In this document: one piece after another, positions 4,118 through 58,335 of the stretch
Numbering within the stretch: position 1 is the first letter of the stretch
Layout of the letters: every line of letters starts with the position of its first letter
Assembly: GCA_913009335.1 (NCBI GenBank)
Contig: CAJVXN010000002.1
Location: 11,981 to 75,980 of the forward strand
DNA length: 64,000 nt
Reading direction: 5' to 3'
From: an uncultured bacterium
Lineage (GTDB): Bacteria > Omnitrophota > Gorgyraeia > Ghiorseimicrobiales > Ghiorseimicrobiaceae
Made by a program: the position numbers and the translations under genes
The notes under the pieces: model-generated
Database searches by the model: none
What the model saw: the letters and a program-made list of their open reading frames with translations, nothing else
What the model was told of the DNA's origin: nothing

Positions 4118-4239
4118 CCCCGTTAGAGATAGGTCGTCTTTAGACGACCGTCTATCTATCGTAAAATTAGTTGATAAAGCTTGCGTTTCTATAATTGTTA
4201 ATCCCGTTTGATATGCCTTAGGCGTTATCTCTAACGGGG
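4118..4239 (+). repeat. TIR-bounded intergenic repeat element, copy 1 (CCCCGTTAGAGATAGG-hairpin GGTCGTC/GACGACC ... TATCTCTAACGGGG)
   Basis: 14-bp terminal inverted repeats and an internal hairpin read directly. The left end lies 4 nt upstream of the MFS start codon. The right TIR encodes the last 7 codons and the stop of the SRPBCC gene. Confidence 0.8.
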
Positions 4240-5521: not shown

Positions 5522-5764
5522 TTAGCTAAGCTTTGATCGTATGATGCTGACAATTTCATTGATTGAGTTAAGCTTTGTTACTTCCTTTGCGGATATCTGG
5601 GTATCAAAAGCTTTAGAAAGGGCAATTACAACCTCCACCATTTCTGTTGAATCTACTCCCAGACTATCGTATAGTTTTCCCTCTGGTTTTAGCTCTTCGG
5701 GTTTAACCCCCAGACTTTTAACTATAGTATCGTTTATTTTTTGTTGTATTTCGGCTGTTTCCAT
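5522..5764 (-). CDS. acyl carrier protein
   Basis: 80 aa with the LGVDSTE phosphopantetheine-attachment motif. Confidence 0.8.
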   Translation of the reverse strand: METAEIQQKINDTIVKSLGVKPEELKPEGKLYDSLGVDSTEMVEVVIALSKAFDTQISAKEVTKLNSINEIVSIIRSKLS

Positions 5765-5794
5765 ATTGTACCCCTTTTTTCCTATAATTATCGT

Positions 5795-5833
5795 ATAACT
5801 TTACATTTCCACCTTGTTAAAATGTAAAGTTAT
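5795..5833. other. intercistronic hairpin (ATAACTTTACATTT ... AAATGTAAAGTTAT) between the rSAM stop and the ACP start; same family as 560-600
   Basis: 14-bp inverted repeat with a 12-nt loop, read directly. Confidence 0.55.
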
Positions 5834-5858
5834 TTTAATTATCCTCTATTTTCCAATA

Positions 5859-8571: not shown

Positions 8572-8695
8572 CCCCGTTAGAGATAGGTCATCTTTAGATG
8601 ACCGTATGTTAAACTAAACTTATTAAACTAAACTTGTTTTTTTATAATTATCTGTTTTCCCGTTATCAATGATGGTGTTGGTATCTCTAACGGGG
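8572..8695 (+). repeat. TIR-bounded intergenic repeat element, copy 2 (hairpin GGTCATC/GATGACC)
   Basis: Same TIRs as copy 1. The hairpin carries compensatory substitutions. It lies 6 nt upstream of the KS-beta-like start codon. Confidence 0.8.
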
Positions 8696-8707: not shown

Positions 8708-9967
8708 TTATTCAAATCTCCTTAGCACTAAAGATGAATGTACTCCGGAGAATCCGCTACTTGTTTTTAATATTGTATTTACCTTTTGTTTTCGGGCAAC
8801 GTTCGCGATATAGTCAAGGTCGCACTTTGGATCGCGTTCATCCTGGTTTATCGTCGGCGGCAGGATATTATTTTGGAATATCATGGCGCAAATTACAAGC
8901 TCTATTGCGTTTGCCGCGGCCAATGGATGGCCGATCATTGATTTTAGTGAACTAGAAGGTATCTTGTAGGCATAATCACCGAATACCATCTTATAAGCAT
9001 CGGTTTCAAATACGTCGTTCATGCGTGTGGAAGAGCCATGAGCGTTGATATGATCTACTTCAGTGGGTTTTATCCCTGAATCTTTTAATGCTAAATTTAT
9101 GCAGTTTGCCATGGACGTGCCGTCACCCGGCAAGTCTGTCATATGAAACGCATTGCAGCTTGTACCAAATCCTAAAATCTCCGCGTAGATAGGCGCGCTT
9201 CTTTTTTTAGCGTGATCTAATTCTTCCAGGATTAGAATGCCCGCGCCTTCGGATAAAACAAAGCCATCGCGTTTGTTGTCAAATGGACGGCTGGCAGCTT
9301 CGGGGTTATCATTTTTAACAGATAAAACATTTACTACATCAAAGGCCCCGAATGTTATAGGTGTAATGGGTGCCTCGGATGCTCCGGCAATCATTATATC
9401 TGCTTCGTTATCCTGTATCAATTCTAAGGCGTATCCTAATGAGTCTGTTCCGGCTGTACATCCTGTTGAAATGGTGTTACATACACCTTTTAATCCGTAT
9501 TTTGCCGAGAGTTCTATTGAAGGGGTATTAAACATAGATGCGTCATAAAGATCTGGCCGTACCTTGGATGGGTCAATTGGATTCTTGCCATTGTCGGTAA
9601 CCATGGCAAATTCCTCTTCCATGTATTTTGTGCCGCATATCGCATTGGCAAGAGATACTCCTATGCGTTCAGGGTTCTCTTTTGGGAAATCAAGAGCGGA
9701 ATCCTCGATGGCCATCTTAGCTGATGCAACAGCAAACTGAACGTATCTATCCATACGCATTACGTCTTCATGTGTTAGTCCTAATTTAAACGGATCAAAA
9801 TCACGCGCTTCAGCAGCAATCTTGGTATTAAAAATCGATACATCAAAACCGTCTACTAATTTTACGGCTGATTTTCCCGATATGAATGCCTGGTATGCGT
9901 TATCTTTTCCTATGCCATTTGGGGAGATAACCCCAATTCCAGTTATAACTACGCGTCGTTTCTTCAT
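8708..9967 (-). CDS. beta-ketoacyl-ACP synthase (FabF / KS-alpha-like, catalytically complete)
   Basis: Active-site STGCTAG, INAHGSST and MIGHPLAAAN motifs are present. Confidence 0.75.
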   Translation of the reverse strand: MKKRRVVITGIGVISPNGIGKDNAYQAFISGKSAVKLVDGFDVSIFNTKIAAEARDFDPFKLGLTHEDVMRMDRYVQFAVASAKMAIEDSALDFPKENPERIGVSLANAICGTKYMEEEFAMVTDNGKNPIDPSKVRPDLYDASMFNTPSIELSAKYGLKGVCNTISTGCTAGTDSLGYALELIQDNEADIMIAGASEAPITPITFGAFDVVNVLSVKNDNPEAASRPFDNKRDGFVLSEGAGILILEELDHAKKRSAPIYAEILGFGTSCNAFHMTDLPGDGTSMANCINLALKDSGIKPTEVDHINAHGSSTRMNDVFETDAYKMVFGDYAYKIPSSSLKSMIGHPLAAANAIELVICAMIFQNNILPPTINQDERDPKCDLDYIANVARKQKVNTILKTSSGFSGVHSSLVLRRFE

Positions 9968-12151: not shown

Positions 12152-13633
12152 TTATGCAAACCAAGAAGTAACCAAAGATTTACCTGTCGGGTTTAGATCG
12201 ATGTTTACATGTTTGGTCTCTGTGTATTCCAGAAGCCCTTCCTTACCTAGCTCGCGTCCGATGCCGCTTTCTTTGTATCCGCCGAATGGCGCTTCATTAT
12301 AGAAACCGCCGAAGGTATTAATCCATACTGTGCCGGAGAGCATTTGCTTAGCTATTCGGTTTGCGCGGTTTAAGTTTTTTGTCCAGACCATGCTTGCTAA
12401 TCCAAATCTGGTATCATTGGCGATTGCTATTGCATCTTGTTCTTTTGTGAATTTAATTATTGATAGTACGGGGCCGAAAATTTCTTCTTGGGCAATACGC
12501 ATGTTGTTTGTAACATTTGCAAATATTGTCGGCTCAAGATAAAATCCTTTTTCTAATTCTCTATCTTCAGGGATATTCCCGCCGTAAAGAAGCTTTGCCT
12601 CTTTTTTACCTATTTCTATGTAATTAATAATAGATTTTCTGTGTTCTTTTGATATGATTGGCCCAAAATCCGTATCAGAGGCAAGGGCATTTCCGATTTT
12701 TAACTTTTTGGTTTTATCAAGCAGCAGTTCTACAAATTTATCGTATATTTTATCTTCCAGGATAAGCCGTGAACCGGCAACGCACATCTGTCCCTGATTC
12801 ATGAATATTGCGCTCATCGCTCCCCCGACTGCTGCTTCTAAGTCGCAATCGGCAAATACTATGTTGGGGCTTTTACCGCCTAATTCCAGGCATACCTTTT
12901 TGGTGTTTTCTGAGGCGAGCTTCATAACCTCGCGACCGGCTGCATTTCCTCCTGTGAAAGAAATCATATTTACTAGTTTGTTTTTTGAAAGTGTCCTGCC
13001 TACTTCATCGCCTTTGCCAGTTACGATATTTACTACTCCCTGCGGTAATTCTATTCTTTCGAATATCTTGGCTAATTCCAGGCATGTTAAGGATGCAAGT
13101 TGTGAGGGTTTAAAGATAACGCTATTTCCCATTATAATAGCGGGGGCAATTTTCCATGCAGCCATTAGCAGTGGGTAGTTCCAGGGTATGATTTGACCTA
13201 TTACGCCTATTGGCTCACGTAATGTGAAGCTAAAGGCCGGATTGTGTATAGGTATGGTTTCACCTTTAATACTTGTCCCAGCAGCTGCGAAATATTCAAA
13301 AGCCGATGCCGCTGTCGGGATATCAATAAAAGTTGTCTGCTTTGTGGTTTTTCCGGTATCTTTTGATTCAAGATTCGCTAAATTATATGCCTCTTCTCTG
13401 ATTATTTGCGCGATTTTGTATAAGTACTGGGCACGTTCAGCAATGGGCATTTTAGGCCACTCGCCCGTATCAAAAGCCTTCCTTGCTGAGCCAATAGCAG
13501 TTTCAGTATCAAGGGTTGTTGCTTGTGGATATGCCGCGATGGTCTCGTTTGTTGAGGGGTTGATGCTTTCTATTTTCTTTTTATTGCTGCTGTCTACCCA
13601 TTTACCATCGATGTACATCTTATATTCATTCAT
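12152..13633 (-). CDS. NAD(P)-dependent aldehyde dehydrogenase
   Basis: ELGGKSP and catalytic-Cys (QGQMCVAGSR) motifs. The start is reassigned to ATG at 13633 (MNEYKMYIDGKWV, with GGAG RBS), because the longer ORF runs into the tandem repeat. Confidence 0.8.
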   Translation of the reverse strand: MNEYKMYIDGKWVDSSNKKKIESINPSTNETIAAYPQATTLDTETAIGSARKAFDTGEWPKMPIAERAQYLYKIAQIIREEAYNLANLESKDTGKTTKQTTFIDIPTAASAFEYFAAAGTSIKGETIPIHNPAFSFTLREPIGVIGQIIPWNYPLLMAAWKIAPAIIMGNSVIFKPSQLASLTCLELAKIFERIELPQGVVNIVTGKGDEVGRTLSKNKLVNMISFTGGNAAGREVMKLASENTKKVCLELGGKSPNIVFADCDLEAAVGGAMSAIFMNQGQMCVAGSRLILEDKIYDKFVELLLDKTKKLKIGNALASDTDFGPIISKEHRKSIINYIEIGKKEAKLLYGGNIPEDRELEKGFYLEPTIFANVTNNMRIAQEEIFGPVLSIIKFTKEQDAIAIANDTRFGLASMVWTKNLNRANRIAKQMLSGTVWINTFGGFYNEAPFGGYKESGIGRELGKEGLLEYTETKHVNIDLNPTGKSLVTSWFA

Positions 13634-13667
13634 CTTATTCTCCGTAACTTCAGATTTTATATTAACC

Positions 13668-13690
13668 TTTGTACACCTACGAGGTGTACA
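13668..13690. promoter_or_regulatory. perfect 9-bp palindrome TGTACACCT-acg-AGGTGTACA, 35-55 nt upstream of the ALDH start (candidate operator)
   Basis: Read directly; position relative to the RBS and start codon. Confidence 0.4.
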
Positions 13691-13696
13691 TGGTTT

Positions 13697-14054
13697 ATTC
13701 AGCACATTCTCCTAAGCAAACTAAGACCATCTTCGATGATTTTAGTTTAGGAATCAGTACTAATTCGGAAGTATAACTTATATCGCTCTTTGAGCTCTAT
13801 AAGTTATGTCCTCATTCAGCACATTCTTCTAAGCAAACTAAGACCATCTTCGATGATTTTAGTTTAGGAATCAGTACTAATTCGGAAGTATAACTTATAT
13901 CGCTCTTTGAGCTCTATAAGTTATGTCCTCATTCAGCACATTCTCCTAAGCAAACTAAGACCATCTTCGATGATTTTAGTTTAGGAATCAGTACTAATTC
14001 GGAAGTATAACTTATATCGCTCTTTGAGCTCTATAAGTTATGTCCTCATTCAGC
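13697..14054. repeat. tandem repeat, 3.06 units of 117 bp, >95% identical; each unit carries two hairpins (AAACTAA...TTAGTTT and ATAACTTATA...TATAAGTTAT)
   Basis: Unit starts at 13697, 13814, 13931 and 14048, read directly. The last partial unit overlaps the stop region of the 14046-15044 gene. Confidence 0.85.
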
Positions 14055-15044
14055 CGGGGCTAACTTCCAAAGGTCAAATATGCGGTTAAACGGCGCATAC
14101 CACCGGGACAGTTTTGCCATATCCCCTTTTAATTTAAGCTTGCGTTGTGTTGTGGCCGCAAACGGGTCCAATTTCCTGCTAAAAACAAGTCTCCAGTAGA
14201 CTATGGATCCGGATATTACAAACTCTGCCGTTTCGTCATTGGTTACTTTATCAATGTTTCCTTTATTAAAATGAAAGTTATATACCTTATTTTCTTCATC
14301 TACCTTTATAGCGAGTCTAGTAGTTAAGTCCAGGCTCTTCCCTTTTTCTTTTATCTGGCTATCGTTATTAACCAGGCTTACGATTTTATCAATATGCTCT
14401 TTTGAGAAAAGTTTGTATTTTTTTAATTCTTCACTGGGGTCATCTGTTTTCGGTAAATCTACTTTGTCCTTTTGTGGATTTGATTGTAAGGCAATATTTA
14501 CCTTGCAGGTTTCATCCAGCATTTGGGTTAAAGAAAATGCCTGCTTGAAGTCTGAGCCTATTGATACAATACCGTGTCTTTTAAGGACAACAATGTTACT
14601 GGTTTCCAGGGCTTTTAATACGGGCTTGACGTTAGTTACTATGGGCCCGTCTTGCTCAAGTGCGGTTATATTGGAGAGATAAAGGCGCGCTTCAAAGTTA
14701 TTAATTTCTAAATTTTTAAAATTAGAATAAAACGCGGTAGTAAACGCGGGATGCGCGTGTATTACCGCGTTGACCTCTTCAAATTTATACGCGCCTAAGT
14801 GAAGGGCTAGTTCGCTTGTGGGTTTAGAGTCGTTTTTATCTAAAACATTTCCTGATTTATCGATTAAAACTATTTCATCCTCTTCCAGGTATCCTAAGTA
14901 GGCATTATGGGTAGTGACTAAAAATTTATCTTTATCTACCCTTACGGATATATTACCTACCGGGCCACAGACAAAGGATCTGTTGGCTAGTTCTTTGGCC
15001 CAGAATAGTATCTCATCTCGTTTATCTTTGTATAGGGTTTTCAT
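14046..15044 (-). CDS. class II aldolase/adducin-family protein (MtnB-like) fused to a C-terminal SCP2-like domain
   Basis: HAHP metal-binding motif (VIHAHPAFTTAF). C-terminal KLKLKGDM...L pattern typical of SCP2. Confidence 0.5.
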   Translation of the reverse strand: MKTLYKDKRDEILFWAKELANRSFVCGPVGNISVRVDKDKFLVTTHNAYLGYLEEDEIVLIDKSGNVLDKNDSKPTSELALHLGAYKFEEVNAVIHAHPAFTTAFYSNFKNLEINNFEARLYLSNITALEQDGPIVTNVKPVLKALETSNIVVLKRHGIVSIGSDFKQAFSLTQMLDETCKVNIALQSNPQKDKVDLPKTDDPSEELKKYKLFSKEHIDKIVSLVNNDSQIKEKGKSLDLTTRLAIKVDEENKVYNFHFNKGNIDKVTNDETAEFVISGSIVYWRLVFSRKLDPFAATTQRKLKLKGDMAKLSRWYAPFNRIFDLWKLAPAE

Positions 15045-15436
15045 GATATTACCTCATTTTGTGGTTTTAGGGTCTTAATTTTTTTTATGCTTACTCTTTT
15101 ACCTAAAAATGTTGATGCGTCTTTATCGGTCAGGGGCATTTTTTTAAGTTGGCCCGCATTAGTTATTTCTACCGGAATTTTATGGAAGTCCGCGAGTATT
15201 TTTACCCCTAAAGCGCCCGGTAGAAAAATATTCCCGTTTGTTTTAAACAGGTATACTTTTTTAATATGCCGCATAAAGAATAAATGCCCTAACGCGCTAT
15301 CGCAGATAAGCGTTGATTTCATCTTTTTCTTTTTTAGTTCTTTCGCCAATATTTTCGCGCCAAATAGGCTTGGCCGCGTTTCACAAAATAATATATTTTC
15401 TTTTTTGTGCCTGGCGTAAAAATCTCTATCCGGCAT
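15041..15436 (-). pseudogene. eIF-2B/MtnA-family C-terminal fragment (truncated paralogue of the adjacent mtnA; possible pseudogene)
   Basis: FCETRPSLFGAKI...LICDSA...NIFLPGALGVKILADFHKIPVEI aligns with the C-terminal half of the MtnA/eIF2B fold. The ORF-track start at 15538 lies inside the repeat element; the internal ATG at 15436 is the likelier start. Confidence 0.4.
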
Positions 15437-15462
15437 TCCGTATATTAGTGTGTAAGTTTTTA

Positions 15463-15587
15463 CCCCGTTAGAGATAGGTCGTCTTTCCGACGACCGTTTA
15501 TTAGTATTAGATTTATTAGCTACGCGTTTCTTTTTCATAATTGATCCGTATTTTTATAAATACGTATAATAGTTATCTCTAACGGGG
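15463..15587 (+). repeat. TIR-bounded intergenic repeat element, copy 3 (hairpin GGTCGTC-TTTCC-GACGACC)
   Basis: Same TIRs. Lies between the mtnA stop and the eIF2B-like fragment. Confidence 0.8.
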
Positions 15588-15594
15588 TTAAGTT

Positions 15595-16590
15595 TTACCA
15601 TTTTTTTGCAAATTCCTCCGGAGTATATATACGGTCAAAAAATATTAGCCCGTTTATCAGATAATTAGGCACAACATCAAAAGCAGGATATATCGCGTCT
15701 TGATTGCCGGAGGTTATACGCGTGTTGCGGAATTTCAGCATTTCTTCTTTTGGCCGGTATTCGATTTTTATATCTTTGATAGTTTTTGTTTGGCCGGGGG
15801 GCTGAACAAAAGAGTAAAACGGTATCCCGAAATGCCTGCTTAGCACCGCTAACTGGTATGTCCCTATTTTATTTACAATATCGCCTTGTTGTGTTGAGCG
15901 GTCCGATCCGACAAGAACCATGTCTATGCGGCACCTTTTTAATATGTCCGCGGCTTGAATATCGCATAAAAGATATATATTAATGCCGGCTTGATGTATC
16001 TCCCACGCGCTCAGGCGTGAACCTTGGAAATAAGGACGGGTTTCAGTTACAAAAAATTCTATTGCTTTACCCATTTTTTGCGCTTCCGCTGCGACAGCTA
16101 CGAGTTCACCGGATACATTGCAGTGGGTTAGAATCTTAGCAGAATTAGGCAGCATGTTTGCCACCAGCTTTGCGCGATACCTGCGGGCGTTCTGTACGGA
16201 ATTTATATATGTAAAGACAGAATTTTTAAGAGATTCGATAAAAACAGCATTATTTGTGTTTTTTAGCATCTTTAGTAGTTCGCTTTGTAATTGAGTAAAT
16301 GCAAATGTGGGACGTGCTGCGGCAAACTTTTTAGTTATTGACCCTGAAAGTTTAGTGAATTTAGAAAGCGAATTTATCTTTTTATTCTTCGCCTCTAGAA
16401 TTAATATATAGTAAAAAAGGAGCACTTGTCCAAATGCGCGCGTTTTCATACTTTTTAATACAGAGACGGCACCTTTTAAGTTTTTGACTTTTATGCGTGT
16501 TTCTTTAAACGGCAGGGCGGTTTCATCCAGCACGGATATGTGTCCGCCTTTGTAAGCAACCGGATTAAAAAGTGGTGATTCGGCTATCAT
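15595..16590 (-). CDS. mtnA: S-methyl-5-thioribose-1-phosphate isomerase (eIF-2B family)
   Basis: TETRPYFQGSRLSAWE and VNKIGTYQLAVLSRHFGIPFY motifs. Confidence 0.7.
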   Translation of the reverse strand: MIAESPLFNPVAYKGGHISVLDETALPFKETRIKVKNLKGAVSVLKSMKTRAFGQVLLFYYILILEAKNKKINSLSKFTKLSGSITKKFAAARPTFAFTQLQSELLKMLKNTNNAVFIESLKNSVFTYINSVQNARRYRAKLVANMLPNSAKILTHCNVSGELVAVAAEAQKMGKAIEFFVTETRPYFQGSRLSAWEIHQAGINIYLLCDIQAADILKRCRIDMVLVGSDRSTQQGDIVNKIGTYQLAVLSRHFGIPFYSFVQPPGQTKTIKDIKIEYRPKEEMLKFRNTRITSGNQDAIYPAFDVVPNYLINGLIFFDRIYTPEEFAKKW

Positions 16591-17336
16591 TTTTTCTCTC
16601 TAATTTTGATTGTTTCAAGGGCTACCTGGATAATTTTTTGCTCGCCTTCGTAATAGTCCATATTCGTAAAACCCATTTCTCCTGTGATTACATTATCGGA
16701 TACGGCAAGTATCGCGGCAGCTTTGGAGTTATTGAGTTGGGCGATAGTTAGAAAACTTGATGAAACCATATCTACCGCAATTGCCCCCAGGGATATGTAT
16801 TTTTCAACGATTTCTTTGGTTTCACGTAATAAAGCATCAGTTGTCCATATTGGCCCTTTGTGGTAGCGTACGCCTAATTTTTCTGCCGCCTCAACAAGGC
16901 TTTGTGTCAGTTCTTCGTCTGCGGCTGTTTTGAAGGAATCTTCGACATAATAAGGGGTTACCCCATCTCCGCGTATTATATCGGTTGCGATAATAATATC
17001 GCCGATTTTAATATCGTCTCGTAAGGCACCGCAGGAGCCGGTACGGATAAGATTTCCTACTCCGCCATTTGTGAGGATTTCCGAGCTAATTGCACTATCT
17101 GCGGAGTATCTACCGCCGTTACCGACTGTTACTTTTGTGCCTAAGAAATCTCCGGAATAGAAAGTATATTCCATGAAAGAAAAATTGCGCACCGGTTCTT
17201 TTATGTGTTTTAAGATGGCATCGCGCCTATCAACAGGACCCGGGACTATTGCGTAGTTTCCGAAGTCACCAGGCTTTATTTGAAGCATTCCCAGTAATTC
17301 TTTTGCGGTTAAATGGATGTCTTTTTTCATGTTCAT
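16587..17336 (-). CDS. purine nucleoside / 5'-methylthioadenosine phosphorylase family (PNP_UDP_1)
   Basis: DeoD/MTAP-like sequence. Genomic context with mtnA. Confidence 0.55.
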   Translation of the reverse strand: MNMKKDIHLTAKELLGMLQIKPGDFGNYAIVPGPVDRRDAILKHIKEPVRNFSFMEYTFYSGDFLGTKVTVGNGGRYSADSAISSEILTNGGVGNLIRTGSCGALRDDIKIGDIIIATDIIRGDGVTPYYVEDSFKTAADEELTQSLVEAAEKLGVRYHKGPIWTTDALLRETKEIVEKYISLGAIAVDMVSSSFLTIAQLNNSKAAAILAVSDNVITGEMGFTNMDYYEGEQKIIQVALETIKIREKK

Positions 17337-17340
17337 TTTA

Positions 17341-18840
17341 TTAGCTCCTTGTTAATGCTGTTTTATCTATTTTTCCTGTACGGTTTTTAGGGAAAGTATC
17401 TACGAATTTAACTGTCTGCGGAACTTTAAATTGCGCTAAATGCTTCTGGCAGAATATTCTTAACTTGCTTTCGGATAAATCACTCTCCTTGTCCTTGATC
17501 ACAAAGGCTTTGATTGCTTCCCCTCTTAATTTATCAGCAATACCGATAACAGCTGCCTCTACTACATCTTTGTGCTTATGAATTACAGCTTCGACCTCCG
17601 GCGCGTAAACAAGCTGTCCGGATATTTTTATCATTTCTTTTTTTCTGTCGACAATATACAGAAACCCATCTTTATCAAATCTGCCTAGATCGCCCGTGTA
17701 AAACCAGTTATTTTTTATTACTCGGGATGTTTCCTCGGGGTTTTTATAGTATTCTTTCATGATCACCCAGCTTTTTAGGGTAATCTCCCCTATGGTATTC
17801 TGAGGAAGTTCTTTATCCTTATCATCGACGATTCTAATATCAATCCATGGTGCGGGCTTACCCACACTTTTAATATTCTTACTTCCTAAAGGAATAACGG
17901 TATTCGGCGGGCATGTTTCTGTTAGCCCCCAGCCGTTTAAAAGATGTGTTTTAGGGCAGTATTCTTGAAAGCGCTTGAGCGCGTCAGGCGCGCTTGGAGC
18001 TCCGAAAACTACCATCCAGCGCAGGCTGGAAAGATCATACTTTTCGAATTCCTTTAATTGTAATATCGCATAATACATTGAGGGTACTATATGAAAACAG
18101 GTAACTTTATATTTAGCAATGTTTTTTAAAAATTCCAAAGGTGAGAACCTTTCCATAAGCACGAGCGTGATATTGTAGATAATGCAATTTTGAAGATAGA
18201 TTAATCCCGCGCTATGTGAAAGCGGCAGAGGACAAAGCTTAGTGTCTTTTTCAGTTAAGTCAACGAAGTATTTCATGGCTTCAGGAGAGCCGGATAGGTG
18301 CCGGTAGCTTAATAATACTCCTTTTGGGTTACCGGATGTCCCTGAGGTATATAATATTAGTGAATTATCGTCTTGGGATATCGCAGGCTCCGTAAATTTA
18401 GGCTCCGCGTTATTTAATATTTCACTGAATTTTAAAAAGTCCCGCTTTTCATTATCGATGAGGATGATTTTTTCTAATGATTTAATTTTATTCTTTAGTT
18501 CTTTAAGCGGGATATTTGCTTTATACTTGGTAATAAGGATTTTGGCCCCTGAATGGTTTAGGCATGATACAATCTCCTCCTCCTTGAGCATGAAATCCAG
18601 AGGGATAACACATAACCCCAGACAAAATGCGGCAAGATAGCTGTATACATACTGCGGGCAATTGGGTAGATATATTGCAATTTTATCCTGAGCTTTTATG
18701 CCTAATTTTTCTAATCCTGCGGCAAGTTGAAAAGCGGCATTTTTTAGCCCAACGGATGTTATTGTTTCATCCTTAAATATTAACGCAGGTTTATCGGGAG
18801 ATCCGGCAGCATTTCTAGCTAATAATTGTTTTGTATTCAT
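17341..18840 (-). CDS. AMP-dependent synthetase/ligase (acyl-CoA synthetase-like)
   Basis: YTSGTSGNPKGV AMP-binding motif, 499 aa. Confidence 0.75.
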   Translation of the reverse strand: MNTKQLLARNAAGSPDKPALIFKDETITSVGLKNAAFQLAAGLEKLGIKAQDKIAIYLPNCPQYVYSYLAAFCLGLCVIPLDFMLKEEEIVSCLNHSGAKILITKYKANIPLKELKNKIKSLEKIILIDNEKRDFLKFSEILNNAEPKFTEPAISQDDNSLILYTSGTSGNPKGVLLSYRHLSGSPEAMKYFVDLTEKDTKLCPLPLSHSAGLIYLQNCIIYNITLVLMERFSPLEFLKNIAKYKVTCFHIVPSMYYAILQLKEFEKYDLSSLRWMVVFGAPSAPDALKRFQEYCPKTHLLNGWGLTETCPPNTVIPLGSKNIKSVGKPAPWIDIRIVDDKDKELPQNTIGEITLKSWVIMKEYYKNPEETSRVIKNNWFYTGDLGRFDKDGFLYIVDRKKEMIKISGQLVYAPEVEAVIHKHKDVVEAAVIGIADKLRGEAIKAFVIKDKESDLSESKLRIFCQKHLAQFKVPQTVKFVDTFPKNRTGKIDKTALTRS

Positions 18841-18908
18841 GAGATTATAGTAAAATTTGACTATCTAAATAATAGTAAAATTTTACTAAATATTTACCAA
18901 TAAGTCAA

Positions 18909-19553: not shown

Positions 19554-20072
19554 TTAAAAAATTTCGTTAAATAAGTATTTACTGAATTTAATTTCTGCTT
19601 TTATCAACTCGATATTATGCTGAATTATTAATGAAAGCGCGGGTTCTTTTTTTTGCTTTGCCAGCTTATCTTTTGTCTGGGCGAGCCATTTTTTTATTCG
19701 TCTTAACCATTCCAGCCGTTGAGTAAGGCGTTTTGAGGCCATTTTTTTATTCATATATTTTAAGAAGTATATGGATAAATCGGTATTAATAAAAGGACGC
19801 TCGAGCTTAAGAAAGTTTTTATAGAGAAGTTTATTAAATATTTCCTTGCCTTTTTTGGTAATTGAATAGACGAATTTATTAAGACCGGCTTCGGGCTTAA
19901 TATGTTTTTCGGTGAGCAGGCCGTTTTTTTTCATACGTCTTAACGGATAATAGATAGAGGTATTTTCAATTGAGGCATAATTAGCTGCTATTTCACGGAT
20001 AAGTTTTTTAATCTGGTACCCGTGCTTTGGCCCGCTCATTAATAACCCCAATATGATAAGGTCTTGTATCAT
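19554..20072 (-). CDS. PadR-family transcriptional regulator
   Basis: GPKHGYQIKKLI ... YYPLRRMKKNGLL winged-helix PadR signature. Confidence 0.7.
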   Translation of the reverse strand: MIQDLIILGLLMSGPKHGYQIKKLIREIAANYASIENTSIYYPLRRMKKNGLLTEKHIKPEAGLNKFVYSITKKGKEIFNKLLYKNFLKLERPFINTDLSIYFLKYMNKKMASKRLTQRLEWLRRIKKWLAQTKDKLAKQKKEPALSLIIQHNIELIKAEIKFSKYLFNEIF

Positions 20073-26970: not shown

Positions 26971-28041
26971 TTAAAGCTGTTTTCGCCGATATATTTTAAT
27001 TGTTGATGGTGTTTTTATTGCGGAAATATTATGCGGGAGGTCAACTATGGATTTTTCTTTTCGCGCATCAATTAGGTCATCTAATTCTTGGATATGTTTA
27101 AAACTCAGGCGTCTTAGATTTCCTGTTATTTTCTGTATGGCAAGCCGCAGTACCATTCTTCGTACGGCAGGATGAAGTCTAAGTATTTTATCGGTTTTAA
27201 GGCTTATTTGTGATTTAGAGTTTGCTTTATGTATTTTGGCCAGGCTTTTTTCTGCTTCGGATTTTATGTATTCATAATCTAGTGCCACAGTTTGAGCCGT
27301 ATTTGCCAGGATGCTTACGATGTTTTTATTGTATTTTTTTAGTTTAGGTATAAGGTTGCGTCTTATCCTGTTTCTAAAATAGATGTCTTTTTTATTTGTA
27401 CGATCCAACCTGTATGAAATCTTACGTTTTTTAAGGTAGGTTAAAATCTCTTTTTTAGGTATCTCCAGCAGCGGTCGTATGAGTGTATACTGGCGGATTT
27501 TTCGTTTAGGTAGTATAGCTGAAAGACCATAAAGCCCACTACCGCGCAATAGGCGCATGAGCACTGTTTCTGCCTGATCATCTTTTGTGTGCCCCAGGGC
27601 AATTTTAGCGGCTTTGATATTATCGGTAACTTTAAATAAGAAATCCTGGCGCGCTTTACGGGCGGTTTCTTCAATGGAGGCATTGTTATTTAGCTTTTTA
27701 ATATTAATACTTTCAGAGAAAAAAGGAATATTTAGCCTTGCTGATAACGTTTGGCAAAACAACATGTCTTTTTTAGACTCTTTCCCTCTTAACATATGGT
27801 TAAGGTGGGCCGCGGCAATTTTAAGTGCGAATTCTTTTTTTAAGGAGTTTAGTAAGTATAATAGGGCAACTGAATCCGGGCCGCCTGAAAGGGCGACTAG
27901 TATGGTTTCGTTTTTTGTAATAAGCCGGTGTTTTTTAAGTGATGCTTTAACTTTATTGGTGAGCCCCGTTAGAGATAGGCCATCTTTAGATGGCCGTTTG
28001 CTAACGGTAGAGTTACTAGATATAAATTTATTTTTTTTCAT
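26971..28041 (-). CDS. tilS: tRNA(Ile)-lysidine synthetase
   Basis: PP-loop SGGPDS. The N-terminal ~30 codons, including the ATG at 28041, lie inside repeat copy 4, and no alternative start is obvious. Confidence 0.75.
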   Translation of the reverse strand: MKKNKFISSNSTVSKRPSKDGLSLTGLTNKVKASLKKHRLITKNETILVALSGGPDSVALLYLLNSLKKEFALKIAAAHLNHMLRGKESKKDMLFCQTLSARLNIPFFSESINIKKLNNNASIEETARKARQDFLFKVTDNIKAAKIALGHTKDDQAETVLMRLLRGSGLYGLSAILPKRKIRQYTLIRPLLEIPKKEILTYLKKRKISYRLDRTNKKDIYFRNRIRRNLIPKLKKYNKNIVSILANTAQTVALDYEYIKSEAEKSLAKIHKANSKSQISLKTDKILRLHPAVRRMVLRLAIQKITGNLRRLSFKHIQELDDLIDARKEKSIVDLPHNISAIKTPSTIKIYRRKQL

Positions 28042-28087
28042 TATTAATCGAGGTATATAAATGCTTAATAAGTTATCTCTAACGGGG
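27964..28087 (+). repeat. TIR-bounded intergenic repeat element, copy 4 (hairpin GGCCATC/GATGGCC)
   Basis: Same TIRs. The hairpin carries double compensatory changes. It contributes the apparent start codon and N-terminal extension of tilS. Confidence 0.8.
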
Positions 28088-37199: not shown

Positions 37200-37323
37200 C
37201 CCCGTTAGAGATAGGTCGTCCTTAGACGACCGTATGTTAAACTAAAACTAACAGATAAACTTACAAGTTCCATAATTATGAATTCATCGTCCATAAGCGC
37301 AAAAGGCATTATCTCTAACGGGG
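37200..37323 (+). repeat. TIR-bounded intergenic repeat element, copy 5 (hairpin GGTCGTC-CTTA-GACGACC)
   Basis: Same TIRs. Lies 8 nt upstream of the FmdE-like start codon. Confidence 0.8.
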
Positions 37324-37327
37324 TTTA

Positions 37328-37448
37328 CCCCGTTAGAGATAGTTCGCCCAGGCGAACGTAAACCAAAGTTATATCCAAATAAAACACATCTCTATGTATT
37401 GCGTTACTATAATAAATCATAGCTATATTTTAGCATCTCTAAGCGGGG
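37328..37448 (+). repeat. TIR-bounded repeat element, copy 6, in tandem with copy 5 (hairpin GTTCGC/GCGAAC; right TIR degenerate CATCTCTAAGCGGGG)
   Basis: Read directly. The right TIR supplies the last codons (NPA-stop) of larB. Confidence 0.65.
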
Positions 37449-39717: not shown

Positions 39718-39814
39718 CGTTCCTCCTTAATCAGGCTATAGCTTACGGAAGCGAAGCTGATATAAGCTATCTTGTTGAATTAATTTTGAAGTTTGAACGA
39801 AAAGGTCATAATAA

Positions 39815-57255: not shown

Positions 57256-57286
57256 GTCGGGGAATGACAGTGGGCGGAAGAGAAAT

Positions 57287-57406
57287 CCCGTTAGAGATAG
57301 GTCACCGGAGGTGACCGTCTAGCAAGCTAAAACCAGCGCATGACATTACAAATTCCTTAATCATAAATTCCTTAGATATATATTAGAGGTGTTATCTTTA
57401 ACGGGA
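57287..57406 (+). repeat. TIR-bounded intergenic repeat element, copy 7, degenerate (CCCGTTAGAGATAGG, hairpin GGTCACC/GGTGACC, right end TATCTTTAACGGGA)
   Basis: Read directly. Lies 32 nt upstream of the SH3 gene start. Confidence 0.6.
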
Positions 57407-57407
57407 T

Positions 57408-57710
57408 TTATTTTTTAGGGCCTGCAGCACCCTTTGCGGGCTTAGCTTGGCCGGCAGCGTCATTTGTACCTTCAGTGGCTGCTGCGCCTTCAGCAGTAGG
57501 AGCTTCCGTGATCTTTTCTTTTTTAAGTTTAAGTCTTACGGTTTTTATCTTAGGTAGGCCAATGACAGCGTTGCCTTCTTCCCAGAGTCCTTTTTCCATA
57601 AGGTGCTTTATGCGTTCAATGCGCTTTAGTACTGTTCGTTGCTGCTTTGTCTTTCCTAGTGAAACTAAAGATGGATGTAATGACATGTCTTTCTCCTTCA
57701 TTGAGCACAT
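57408..57710 (-). CDS. small basic protein with an Ala/Gly/Lys-rich tail, hypothetical
   Basis: ORF only; the likely start is the internal MSLHPSL. Confidence 0.3.
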   Translation of the reverse strand: MCSMKEKDMSLHPSLVSLGKTKQQRTVLKRIERIKHLMEKGLWEEGNAVIGLPKIKTVRLKLKKEKITEAPTAEGAAATEGTNDAAGQAKPAKGAAGPKK

Positions 57711-57774
57711 AAGTTACGGAAGCTAAGCTGACGTAACTTATAAGTGCGAAGTGAACCCCGCCAAAGGCGGGGTA

Positions 57775-58335
57775 TTACAGTTTTCGTATAAGGCAATCAT
57801 TGTAAAGCCGTTTTAATTTTTTCTGACTTATTTTCGCCTTATCTTTATTGTTAAACATTCCCACGCAAACAATTACATATTTATTTTTCGGTATAACATA
57901 GGCAGTAAAGCCTTTTCTCTCTAAGGTTAACTTTTCTTTCTCGGCAGATGTTTTATTTTTAAATGAGGCAACTTGAACAGTATAGCCTTTAAAGTCAGCT
58001 AGGTTTCTGCGTATTTTGTTTTTTGGTTGTTTTGTTTCTATTCTGGAATTTGCTTTTTTTATCGGTTCTTTGCCTATTACTTTATTGGTTGTTATCGTAC
58101 TCGGGATCTGGATTACGTTTGAATTATTATCAACTGTTTGTATTTTTCTGCCCTTTTCTATTCCCAAAGCATAGGATACAATAAAAATAACTAAAAAGCA
58201 GATTCCAAGAATAATATTTTTCTCATAGGGAGCGATCTTTTCAAAAAACGATCCCTGTATGCGTTTTTTAGGCGTTGTATTCTTCACATGCGGTGTAAAC
58301 AGTTCGAGTTGTGTAGGTTTATTCTTAGTAAACAT
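57775..58335 (-). CDS. SPOR-domain membrane protein
   Basis: One TM helix. C-terminal GYTVQVASFKNKTSAEK...KGF.AYV SPOR pattern. Confidence 0.55.
   Translation of the reverse strand: MFTKNKPTQLELFTPHVKNTTPKKRIQGSFFEKIAPYEKNIILGICFLVIFIVSYALGIEKGRKIQTVDNNSNVIQIPSTITTNKVIGKEPIKKANSRIETKQPKNKIRRNLADFKGYTVQVASFKNKTSAEKEKLTLERKGFTAYVIPKNKYVIVCVGMFNNKDKAKISQKKLKRLYNDCLIRKL

Follow-up and report, generated by a model that had tools for sequence, protein, structure and literature searches.

How does the spacer between two genes of a chromosomal operon come to hold three almost identical copies of a structured 117-nt unit, and what could these copies do there? The question is raised by the window analysed here, a stretch of 64,000 nucleotides from a Candidatus Omnitrophota bacterium whose aldolase is 67-69% identical to those of the nearest GTDB representatives. 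Between the genes for an aldolase-SCP2 fusion protein and an aldehyde dehydrogenase (ALDH), the original prediction had placed a near-identical 117-bp tandem array of three units and a partial fourth, and this is confirmed at 99-100% identity. Tandem Repeats Finder reports the array at 13697-14054 with a period of 117, 3.1 copies, 99% matches, 0 indels and a score of 709, making it by far the strongest tandem repeat of the window. A repeat search gives 3.06 copies, with repeat starts at 13697, 13814 and 13931 at 100, 99 and 100% identity. On the minus strand, the whole array (13697..14054) consists of three 117-nt units and the 7-nt start of a fourth: GCTGAAT followed by 110 nt, three times over, then GCTGAAT, then AAACC. 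Unit 1 (13938..14054, minus) adjoins the aldolase gene and opens with GCT GAA TGA. Unit 2 (13821..13937, minus) carries the sole difference between units, a SNP at 13828 (C to T on the plus strand) that turns AGGAG into AGAAG on the minus strand, and unit 3 (13704..13820, minus) is followed by the 7-nt partial repeat GCTGAAT at 13697-13703. One SNP in 351 nt bears out the suggestion of a recent expansion or homogenisation. A coding repeat is ruled out, as no ORF of at least 40 aa runs through the array on either strand even though 117 is divisible by 3, and CRISPR is ruled out by units that are contiguous and without spacers.

Two hairpins had been described in each unit. Both are present in all units (3/3 in the repeat search), and their sequences are unrelated to each other. 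The long hairpin, here called hairpin A, reads ATAACTTATATCGCTC-ttt-GAGCTCTATAAGTTAT in each unit; that of unit 1 spans 35 nt at 14007..14041 on the minus strand, with copies at 13890-13924 and 13773-13807. It begins 5 nt past the aldolase stop codon, and a closing GGA/TCC helix begins right at the stop. The second hairpin, containing AAACTAA, had been drawn with 7 bp and a 17-nt loop, but is better described as 14-nt arms, 86% complementary, around a 3-nt loop (AAACTAAGACCATC-ttc-GATGATTTTAGTTT). The core of this hairpin B lies at 13952..13982 (minus) in unit 1, with copies at 13835-13865 and 13718-13748. The predicted fold lengthens this stem outward by pairing UUCCU with AGGAG, an SD-like run close to the unit's 3' end, and a homologue of the hairpin is found in the relative contig L034 (TAAACTAAAATTATCGA...). 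The predicted RNA fold of each unit has a free energy of -40.3 kcal/mol and z = -6.2. Rfam covariance models, searched at a permissive E-value, gave chance matches only, the best of them 28 bits for a plant miRNA model whose gathering threshold is 140.

The gene context between the aldolase-SCP2 stop and ALDH is as originally claimed. The upstream gene (14046..15044, minus) encodes a class II aldolase fused to an SCP2 domain (PF00596, 9e-32; PF02036, 7e-9), and the downstream gene (12152..13633, minus) encodes ALDH (PF00171, 1e-179), for which the exact protein with the same start is on record. The minus strand carries every large ORF of the window, and the genes around the array are co-directional. 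On the gene strand, the array runs from the last two codons of aldolase-SCP2 and its TGA to 63 nt before the ALDH start. The rest of the intergenic region (13634..13696, minus) contains the palindrome TGTACACCTacgAGGTGTACA at 13670-13690, with wider imperfect arms at 13663-13697, and the Shine-Dalgarno (SD) sequence of ALDH, GGAG at 13640-13643, ahead of the ALDH ATG at 13633. This palindrome had been noted before, although it begins at 13670 and not at 13668. Upstream of aldolase-SCP2 are genes for an AMP-dependent ligase, a PNP/MTAP-type phosphorylase, an IF-2B/MtnA-type isomerase and a short (truncated) IF-2B paralogue, and the gene order of the operon is kept in relatives. Neither a sigma-70-like promoter nor a sense-strand terminator is predicted in 13400-14300, and the one terminator-like site there belongs to the antisense strand and falls at the 13670-13690 palindrome; what had been called the ALDH promoter region is thus not predicted to hold a promoter of this type. 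Because the conserved genes are co-directional and no promoter or terminator is predicted, the array would lie inside a polycistronic transcript, and it is most likely co-transcribed within the operon, between aldolase-SCP2 and ALDH.

A candidate promoter/operator of the operon, recognised from sequence and by pattern search and not scored by the promoter scan, is located at 18841..18908 (minus). It combines TTGACT with two palindromes, TAGTAAAATTT(T/G)ACTA, such that the candidate operator palindrome TAGTAAAATTTTACTA occurs twice at 18848-18888, and the region is conserved in the relative contig L033 (1529-1619). A pattern search of the array for TAGTAAAATTTTACTA found none. Just upstream of the candidate promoter/operator are genes for a PadR-family regulator (19554-20072) and a rhodanese. 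The operon at 12152-18908 resembles a 5'-deoxynucleoside/methylthioadenosine salvage ('DHAP shunt'-like) route, and the aldolase-SCP2 fusion is conserved in Omnitrophota, its SCP2 part alone weakly matching Asgard archaeal MAGs. Elsewhere the window holds ordinary chromosomal genes, such as those for FtsH, TilS, PdxJ, FolP, CODH/ACS subunits, GatAB and TsaD. Among its ORFs of at least 120 aa there is no transposase, RAYT, integrase/tyrosine recombinase, replication or partition gene, and blastn found no similarity to plasmids or phages.

The same locus was compared across relatives. In five of their contigs (L005, L006, L007, L031 and L035) the genes overlap or only 14-82 nt follow the aldolase: as called, the aldolase and ALDH genes of L035 share 4 nt, those of L006 are separated by a 14-nt spacer, and in L007 the next gene follows the aldolase after 82 nt. 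The spacers of L005 (48 nt) and L031 (69 nt) each contain one palindrome, ATAACTTTACATTT...AAATGTAAAGTTAT, immediately 5' of the SD. Deleting the array in silico leaves GCT GAA TAA and a 66-nt spacer in which one palindrome and the SD remain, an arrangement comparable to those of L031 and L005, and we take 13634-13696 to be the probable ancestral spacer. The window palindrome at 13663-13697 has the same base and occupies the same position as the intercistronic palindrome of L005 and L031. Simple intergenic palindromes with the base (A)TAAC(C/T)TT...AA(G)GTTAT and variable tips form a family with sites at 559-601, 5795-5833 and 13663-13697 of the window, at 9017-9057 and 12481-12521 of L005 (two copies that are one base apart) and at 1388-1426 of L031. 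The palindrome beside the array had been regarded as operator-like; it is instead a member of this family, sitting where relatives have their single intercistronic hairpin. The base of hairpin A, ATAACTT/AAGTTAT, is also found in other intergenic palindromes by pattern search.

Units are present at this locus in other relatives. In L030, whose aldolase is 83% identical, at least 1.4 diverged units stand right after the same stop codon, the second beginning 111 nt after the first, and in L033 (aldolase 73% identical) a unit homologue is directly 3' of the same stop. The order of modules in L030 and L033 is the stop, a (G/C)(G/C)ACA(T/C)(A/G)A(C/G)TT hairpin, (C/G)CGA(A/G)TT, a long hairpin, GCTTAG, a G-rich run and AATGA. 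The contigs L033 and L034, both from a single sequencing run, share a 29-nt overlap; if they are joined, as we infer they should be, the result is a single unit whose hairpin B has 109 nt inserted in its loop. The insert (L033 6358-6456 plus L034 1-30) has its own repeated motif, GTAAGGTCTA(C/T)CCTT..., and insert-like GGTCTATCC..GGATA hairpins occur in two spacers of contig L039 (4443-4551 and 6778-6810) and are absent from the window; it may be a nested third small element. The number of units at this locus in relatives is therefore 0, 1 or at least 1.4, and presence or absence differs even among close relatives with 82-83% identical aldolases (L031 versus L030).

Outside the array, neither blastn nor nhmmer found further copies of the unit in the 64 kb. 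A covariance model (R1) was built from a MAFFT alignment of four units from the window and related sequences (A1), in which RNAalifold finds two hairpins with compensatory change at 19 of 42 pairs, and was run through cmsearch with filters off. With R1, the region of unit 1 (13923-14054) scores 107.5 bits and that of unit 3 (13690-13820) scores 98.3 bits, and further copies do appear. A diverged shorter copy with hairpin A and a short GC-rich hairpin B is located at 57696..57780 on the plus strand (51.5 bits, E 6e-9); antisense to the flanking genes, it takes up everything between the stop codon of the gene at 57775-58335 and the SD that precedes a small ORF. Another diverged shorter copy (39725..39811, plus strand and antisense; 32.5 bits, E 6e-5) fills the TsaD-MgtC intergenic region. 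A full-length copy, again antisense to the genes, lies between efp and accB at 1218-1348 of L039 (47.8 bits, E 8e-9), a contig of the same species that reaches ~9-10 kb beyond the window. This genome thus has four element loci within the ~74 kb searched, three of the four antisense to genes. Two more units of contig L034 (1808-1936 and 1961-2063) occupy a different spacer, which separates the ApbA gene from a gene encoding 85 aa, and in this contig the G-rich run is the only SD-like sequence 5' of the ALDH and ApbA start codons.

All copies of the family are intergenic; they occur in both orientations and, besides the host, in two related Omnitrophota species. The dispersed copies keep the order of the modules and the linker GCGAATTnATCCCG. 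In the more distant relatives L005-L007, L035 and L036, R1 gave no convincing match. Copies within the genome are so diverged that blastn and nhmmer miss them when given the unit alone. Such divergence would be unusual for a recently active mobile element, and would also fit selection on structure acting locus by locus. In an alignment of eight copies (A2), which was fitted to the R1 model so that its pairing counts are inflated, 91.3% of cells form standard pairs, a share that drops to 31-42% once the partners are shifted by 1-3 columns, and 28 of 42 pairs (13 of 21 in helix 1) are changed on both sides. The observed pairing values were reached by none of 500 shuffles. The MAFFT alignment A1, with its 19 compensatory pairs, is independent of that fit. 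With two hairpins that show compensatory changes across eight copies, the units are indeed structured modules, as had been supposed. G:T (G:U) pairs outnumber A:C pairs by 17 to 3 on the top strand of the element, a slight hint that this strand folds when single-stranded, as RNA or DNA.

Searches with exact and degenerate hairpin patterns gave no match in GTDB representatives (host species not included), IMG/VR or JGI metagenome contigs, and the degenerate hairpin-A pattern on its own likewise had none in IMG/VR. The element pattern of L030 and L033 had no match in the JGI collection either, which also missed L030, itself a JGI contig, and the negatives from the hairpin patterns are weak for this reason. 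A literature search returned no paper on repeat elements of Omnitrophota. The original prediction was to fall if the unit proved to be part of a larger known repeat element. In substance this is the case, since the unit belongs to a wider family of repeat elements, but the family is not one that was previously known.

Several other explanations of the array have to be weighed against a dispersed element. All data are short-read metagenome assemblies and three of five contigs break in the repeat, which could point to a repeat that was collapsed or expanded by the assembler. However, two assemblies of different strains give the same G-A-G order of units: contig DRER01000055.1 (L003, MAG GCA_011051015.1), from a 99.7% identical assembly and with 22 of 8538 positions differing from the window, has an identical three-unit array with the SNP likewise in the middle unit. 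In addition, two Logan contigs assembled at k=31 end exactly 30 nt into the repeated stretch, one from each side, and because this distance is k-1, at least two copies must be present in the reads. The array is a true repeat and not an artefact of one assembly, and an artefact is accordingly highly improbable. As a further observation on these assemblies, a MEGAHIT k=127 contig from sample DRR093005 (L001) ends in unit 1 at ~13946, one base before the G/A SNP position, and its final 126-mer is unique; this hints that the sample may hold variants of the array at the SNP site. The strain comparison also bears on the two uses that were first imagined for the array, that of an iteron- or operator-like array bound by protein at the DNA level and that of a phase-variable 'contingency' spacer that would tune ALDH through its copy number. 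Palindromes do recur at a regular 117-bp spacing, the operon is preceded by a gene for a PadR-family regulator, and the L001 break could be read as a sign of array heterogeneity. Yet the two strains, 0.26% apart, share both the copy number (three) and the SNP, the array and its immediate surroundings have no predicted sigma-70-like promoter, the setting is a housekeeping chromosome with no replication or partition (Rep/Par) genes, and the candidate operator motif is absent from the array. Both uses are very unlikely on these grounds. Since the one SNP in 351 nt is common to both strains, amplification would be recent yet older than the strain split.

The structure of the units could also be that of discrete small RNAs of ~117 nt each, either cut from the operon transcript or transcribed independently, and acting in trans in the manner of the naRNAs from E. 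coli REP325. Each unit folds stably by itself (-40 kcal/mol, z = -6.2), and covariation backs the fold, as does the excess of G:U over A:C on the top strand (17 to 3). The same covariation, however, is seen in palindromic DNA elements, and with no promoter-like site, no Rfam match and dispersed copies on either strand relative to transcription, we give small RNAs little credence. Somewhat less improbable, though still doubtful, is a purely local event in which the native intercistronic regulatory region, made up of hairpins and an SD-like sequence, was duplicated in place, the likeness at other loci reflecting a generic intergenic hairpin 'grammar' inherited vertically within the clade. The copies that match best (L030, L033/L034) belong to the orthologous locus, those at other loci are diverged, no transposase was seen, and the 3' end of the unit (TTAGGAGAATGTGCTGAATGA) is identical to the ALDH initiation region (TACGGAGAATAAGATGAATGA) at 16 of 21 positions in a hand alignment. 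What speaks against local duplication is the presence of copies in at least four non-orthologous intergenic regions, in both orientations and with the same module order and linker, together with the difference in presence between the close relatives L031 and L030.

The reading that we favour is that the unit is probably an undescribed dispersed intergenic element that was inserted at the aldolase stop, was amplified in tandem and acts in a BIME-like fashion within the operon mRNA. The element is small and non-coding, is composed of two different hairpins and belongs to a clade of Candidatus Omnitrophota. Hairpin A has the base ...ACATAA(C/G)TT.../...AA(G/C)TTAT..., and hairpin B is longer, the 3' strand of its base being an SD-like G-rich run (GGAGAAT or GGGGAAA). 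A single element may have inserted at the stop codon of aldolase-SCP2, its first bases completing the present TGA, and amplification to three copies would then have proceeded, most simply, by unequal recombination or replication slippage between the 7-nt GCTGAAT direct repeats. No mobility event was directly seen, and transposase, RAYT and integrase genes are absent from the 64 kb. The array would be transcribed together with the genes for the AMP-dependent ligase, nucleoside phosphorylase, MtnA-like isomerase, aldolase-SCP2, ALDH and further genes. Its six RNA hairpins most likely behave like REP/BIME clusters of E. coli operons: they would shield the upstream message from 3' exonucleases and would lower read-through or coupling into ALDH, with a higher upstream-to-downstream expression ratio as the outcome. 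That the array raises this ratio within the operon is proposed because the E. coli BIME-2 cluster is the best-documented analogue. What the data show is the array, the family with its dispersal and its conserved two-hairpin structure, and the short spacers of relatives; the history of insertion and amplification, the co-transcription and the effect on expression are what we infer. With three of the four loci antisense to genes, a function in the sense RNA cannot be general for the family.

A second, unrelated family of elements was observed in the same window. It has six copies of ~120 nt, all in the same orientation (4119-4238, 8573-8694, 15464-15586, 27965-28086, 37201-37322 and 57287-57405), and beyond these six there are a solo end at 37329-37341 and sites in L039 (5584-5722) and in L040 (555-611). 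Its copies are bounded by 13-15-nt terminal inverted repeats that match perfectly (CCCGTTAGAGATA...TATCTCTAACGGG); inside lies the hairpin GGTCGTC-TTTA-GACGACC, and the interiors are only 56-73% identical. In at least three copies (4119, 8573 and 37201) the gene-proximal end, GGGGTAAAT(AA)ATG, is the SD and start codon of the next gene. Because copies overlap the 5' ends of the longest ORFs at 15464 and 27965, the start codons of these ORFs are probably mis-set. A 57-nt minimal version of this family occurs on an IMG/VR contig. Two short ORFs with good SDs that are missing from the ORF list were also seen on the minus strand, one in 5522-5858 (start ATGGAAACAGCC... at ~5756) and one in 57256-57774 (start ATGTCATTACATCC... 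at ~57680); the former may encode an acyl-carrier-like protein beside the ketoacyl synthase genes.

A more far-reaching view, which we consider unlikely, is that the first element is not merely selfish DNA but a portable intercistronic RNA cassette under selection. Such a cassette would supply its own TGA stop at its 5' edge and a stop-proximal hairpin. Its hairpin B would sequester the SD-like run, which would be a real SD where the element abuts the next gene, as at ALDH and ApbA in L034, and the tandem copy number would give a graded uncoupling of upstream and downstream genes. If this were true, then together with the second family and its SD-plus-ATG ends it would mean that, in this Omnitrophota lineage, a large part of the signals for translation initiation and operon polarity are built from repeat elements. 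The family of the element that we prefer would be the first small-repeat-element family documented for Omnitrophota, a phylum known almost solely from metagenomes, with the second family found in passing. The array accounts for the breaks of short-read assemblies at this operon, and R1 is a covariance model that can be used for a census of the family. If the effect on expression were confirmed, it would provide an independent, non-proteobacterial case of hairpin clusters tuning the ratios of operon genes, like REP325. The novelty is modest, and no new class of mechanism or system is involved.

How, then, does the element compare with known repeats? An integron attC array is ruled out, as there is no tyrosine recombinase in the window and the flanking genes form an operon that is syntenic across species and are not cassettes. 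ERIC/IRU, Correia, RUP and BOX are MITE-like intergenic repeats (reviewed in PMC3184786, PMC2229807 and PMC10969869). Like them, the element is non-coding, ~100-130 bp long and found in transcribed intergenic regions in either orientation; its presence varies between relatives, and it forms stable RNA or DNA hairpins and can supply its neighbours with regulatory signals. Unlike MITEs, it has no terminal inverted repeats over the 117-nt unit, only a weak 6-nt GGACAT/ATGTGC, and its copies are far more diverged than those of typical MITE bursts. No target-site duplication is unambiguous, since the flanking 7-nt GCTGAAT is also the repeat junction. Elements derived from IS200/IS605 (palindrome-associated elements; background in part from PMC3333891) have subterminal hairpins and no terminal inverted repeats. 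Like such non-autonomous elements, the unit lacks terminal inverted repeats, has two different subterminal hairpins and borders at its left end on an invariant short sequence, ...AATGA/AGTGA in this case. It differs from them in that no TnpA or TnpB was found and that its few copies show no orientation bias.

REPs and BIMEs are closer in several respects. A REP is an imperfect extragenic palindrome of 20-40 nt, usually in a 3'-UTR, a description that fits hairpin A with its 35 nt and its place 5 nt past a stop codon. However, the flanks read GAGGAC/ATAAC...GTTAT/ACTTCC, a GTAG/CTAC foot is absent, by eye, from all aligned copies, and whereas a BIME joins a REP to an inverted REP of the same class through linkers, hairpins A and B are unrelated. 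The stems here are AT-rich, the unit is longer (117 nt) and the phylum is Omnitrophota. REPs exceed ~100 copies per genome; here four loci occur in the ~74 kb searched. The RAYT (Y1 transposase) gene that goes with REPs is not found among the window ORFs of at least 120 aa. Defining features of REPs and of MITEs are lacking in this element, and the nearest analogue of the array is the tandem BIME-2/REP325 cluster of E. coli. BIME-2 clusters of that species hold several copies in tandem, which are strongly conserved at a given locus and differ from strain to strain (PMC3333891). REP325, with six two-hairpin units between yjdM and yjdN, is both a partial terminator and a stabiliser of the upstream mRNA (bioRxiv 10.64898/2026.03.23.713779). 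The Omnitrophota array resembles these clusters in its tandem two-hairpin units, near-identical within the locus and without a poly-U terminator, in its place in a transcribed spacer between co-directional genes, and in belonging to a family that is dispersed over intergenic regions.
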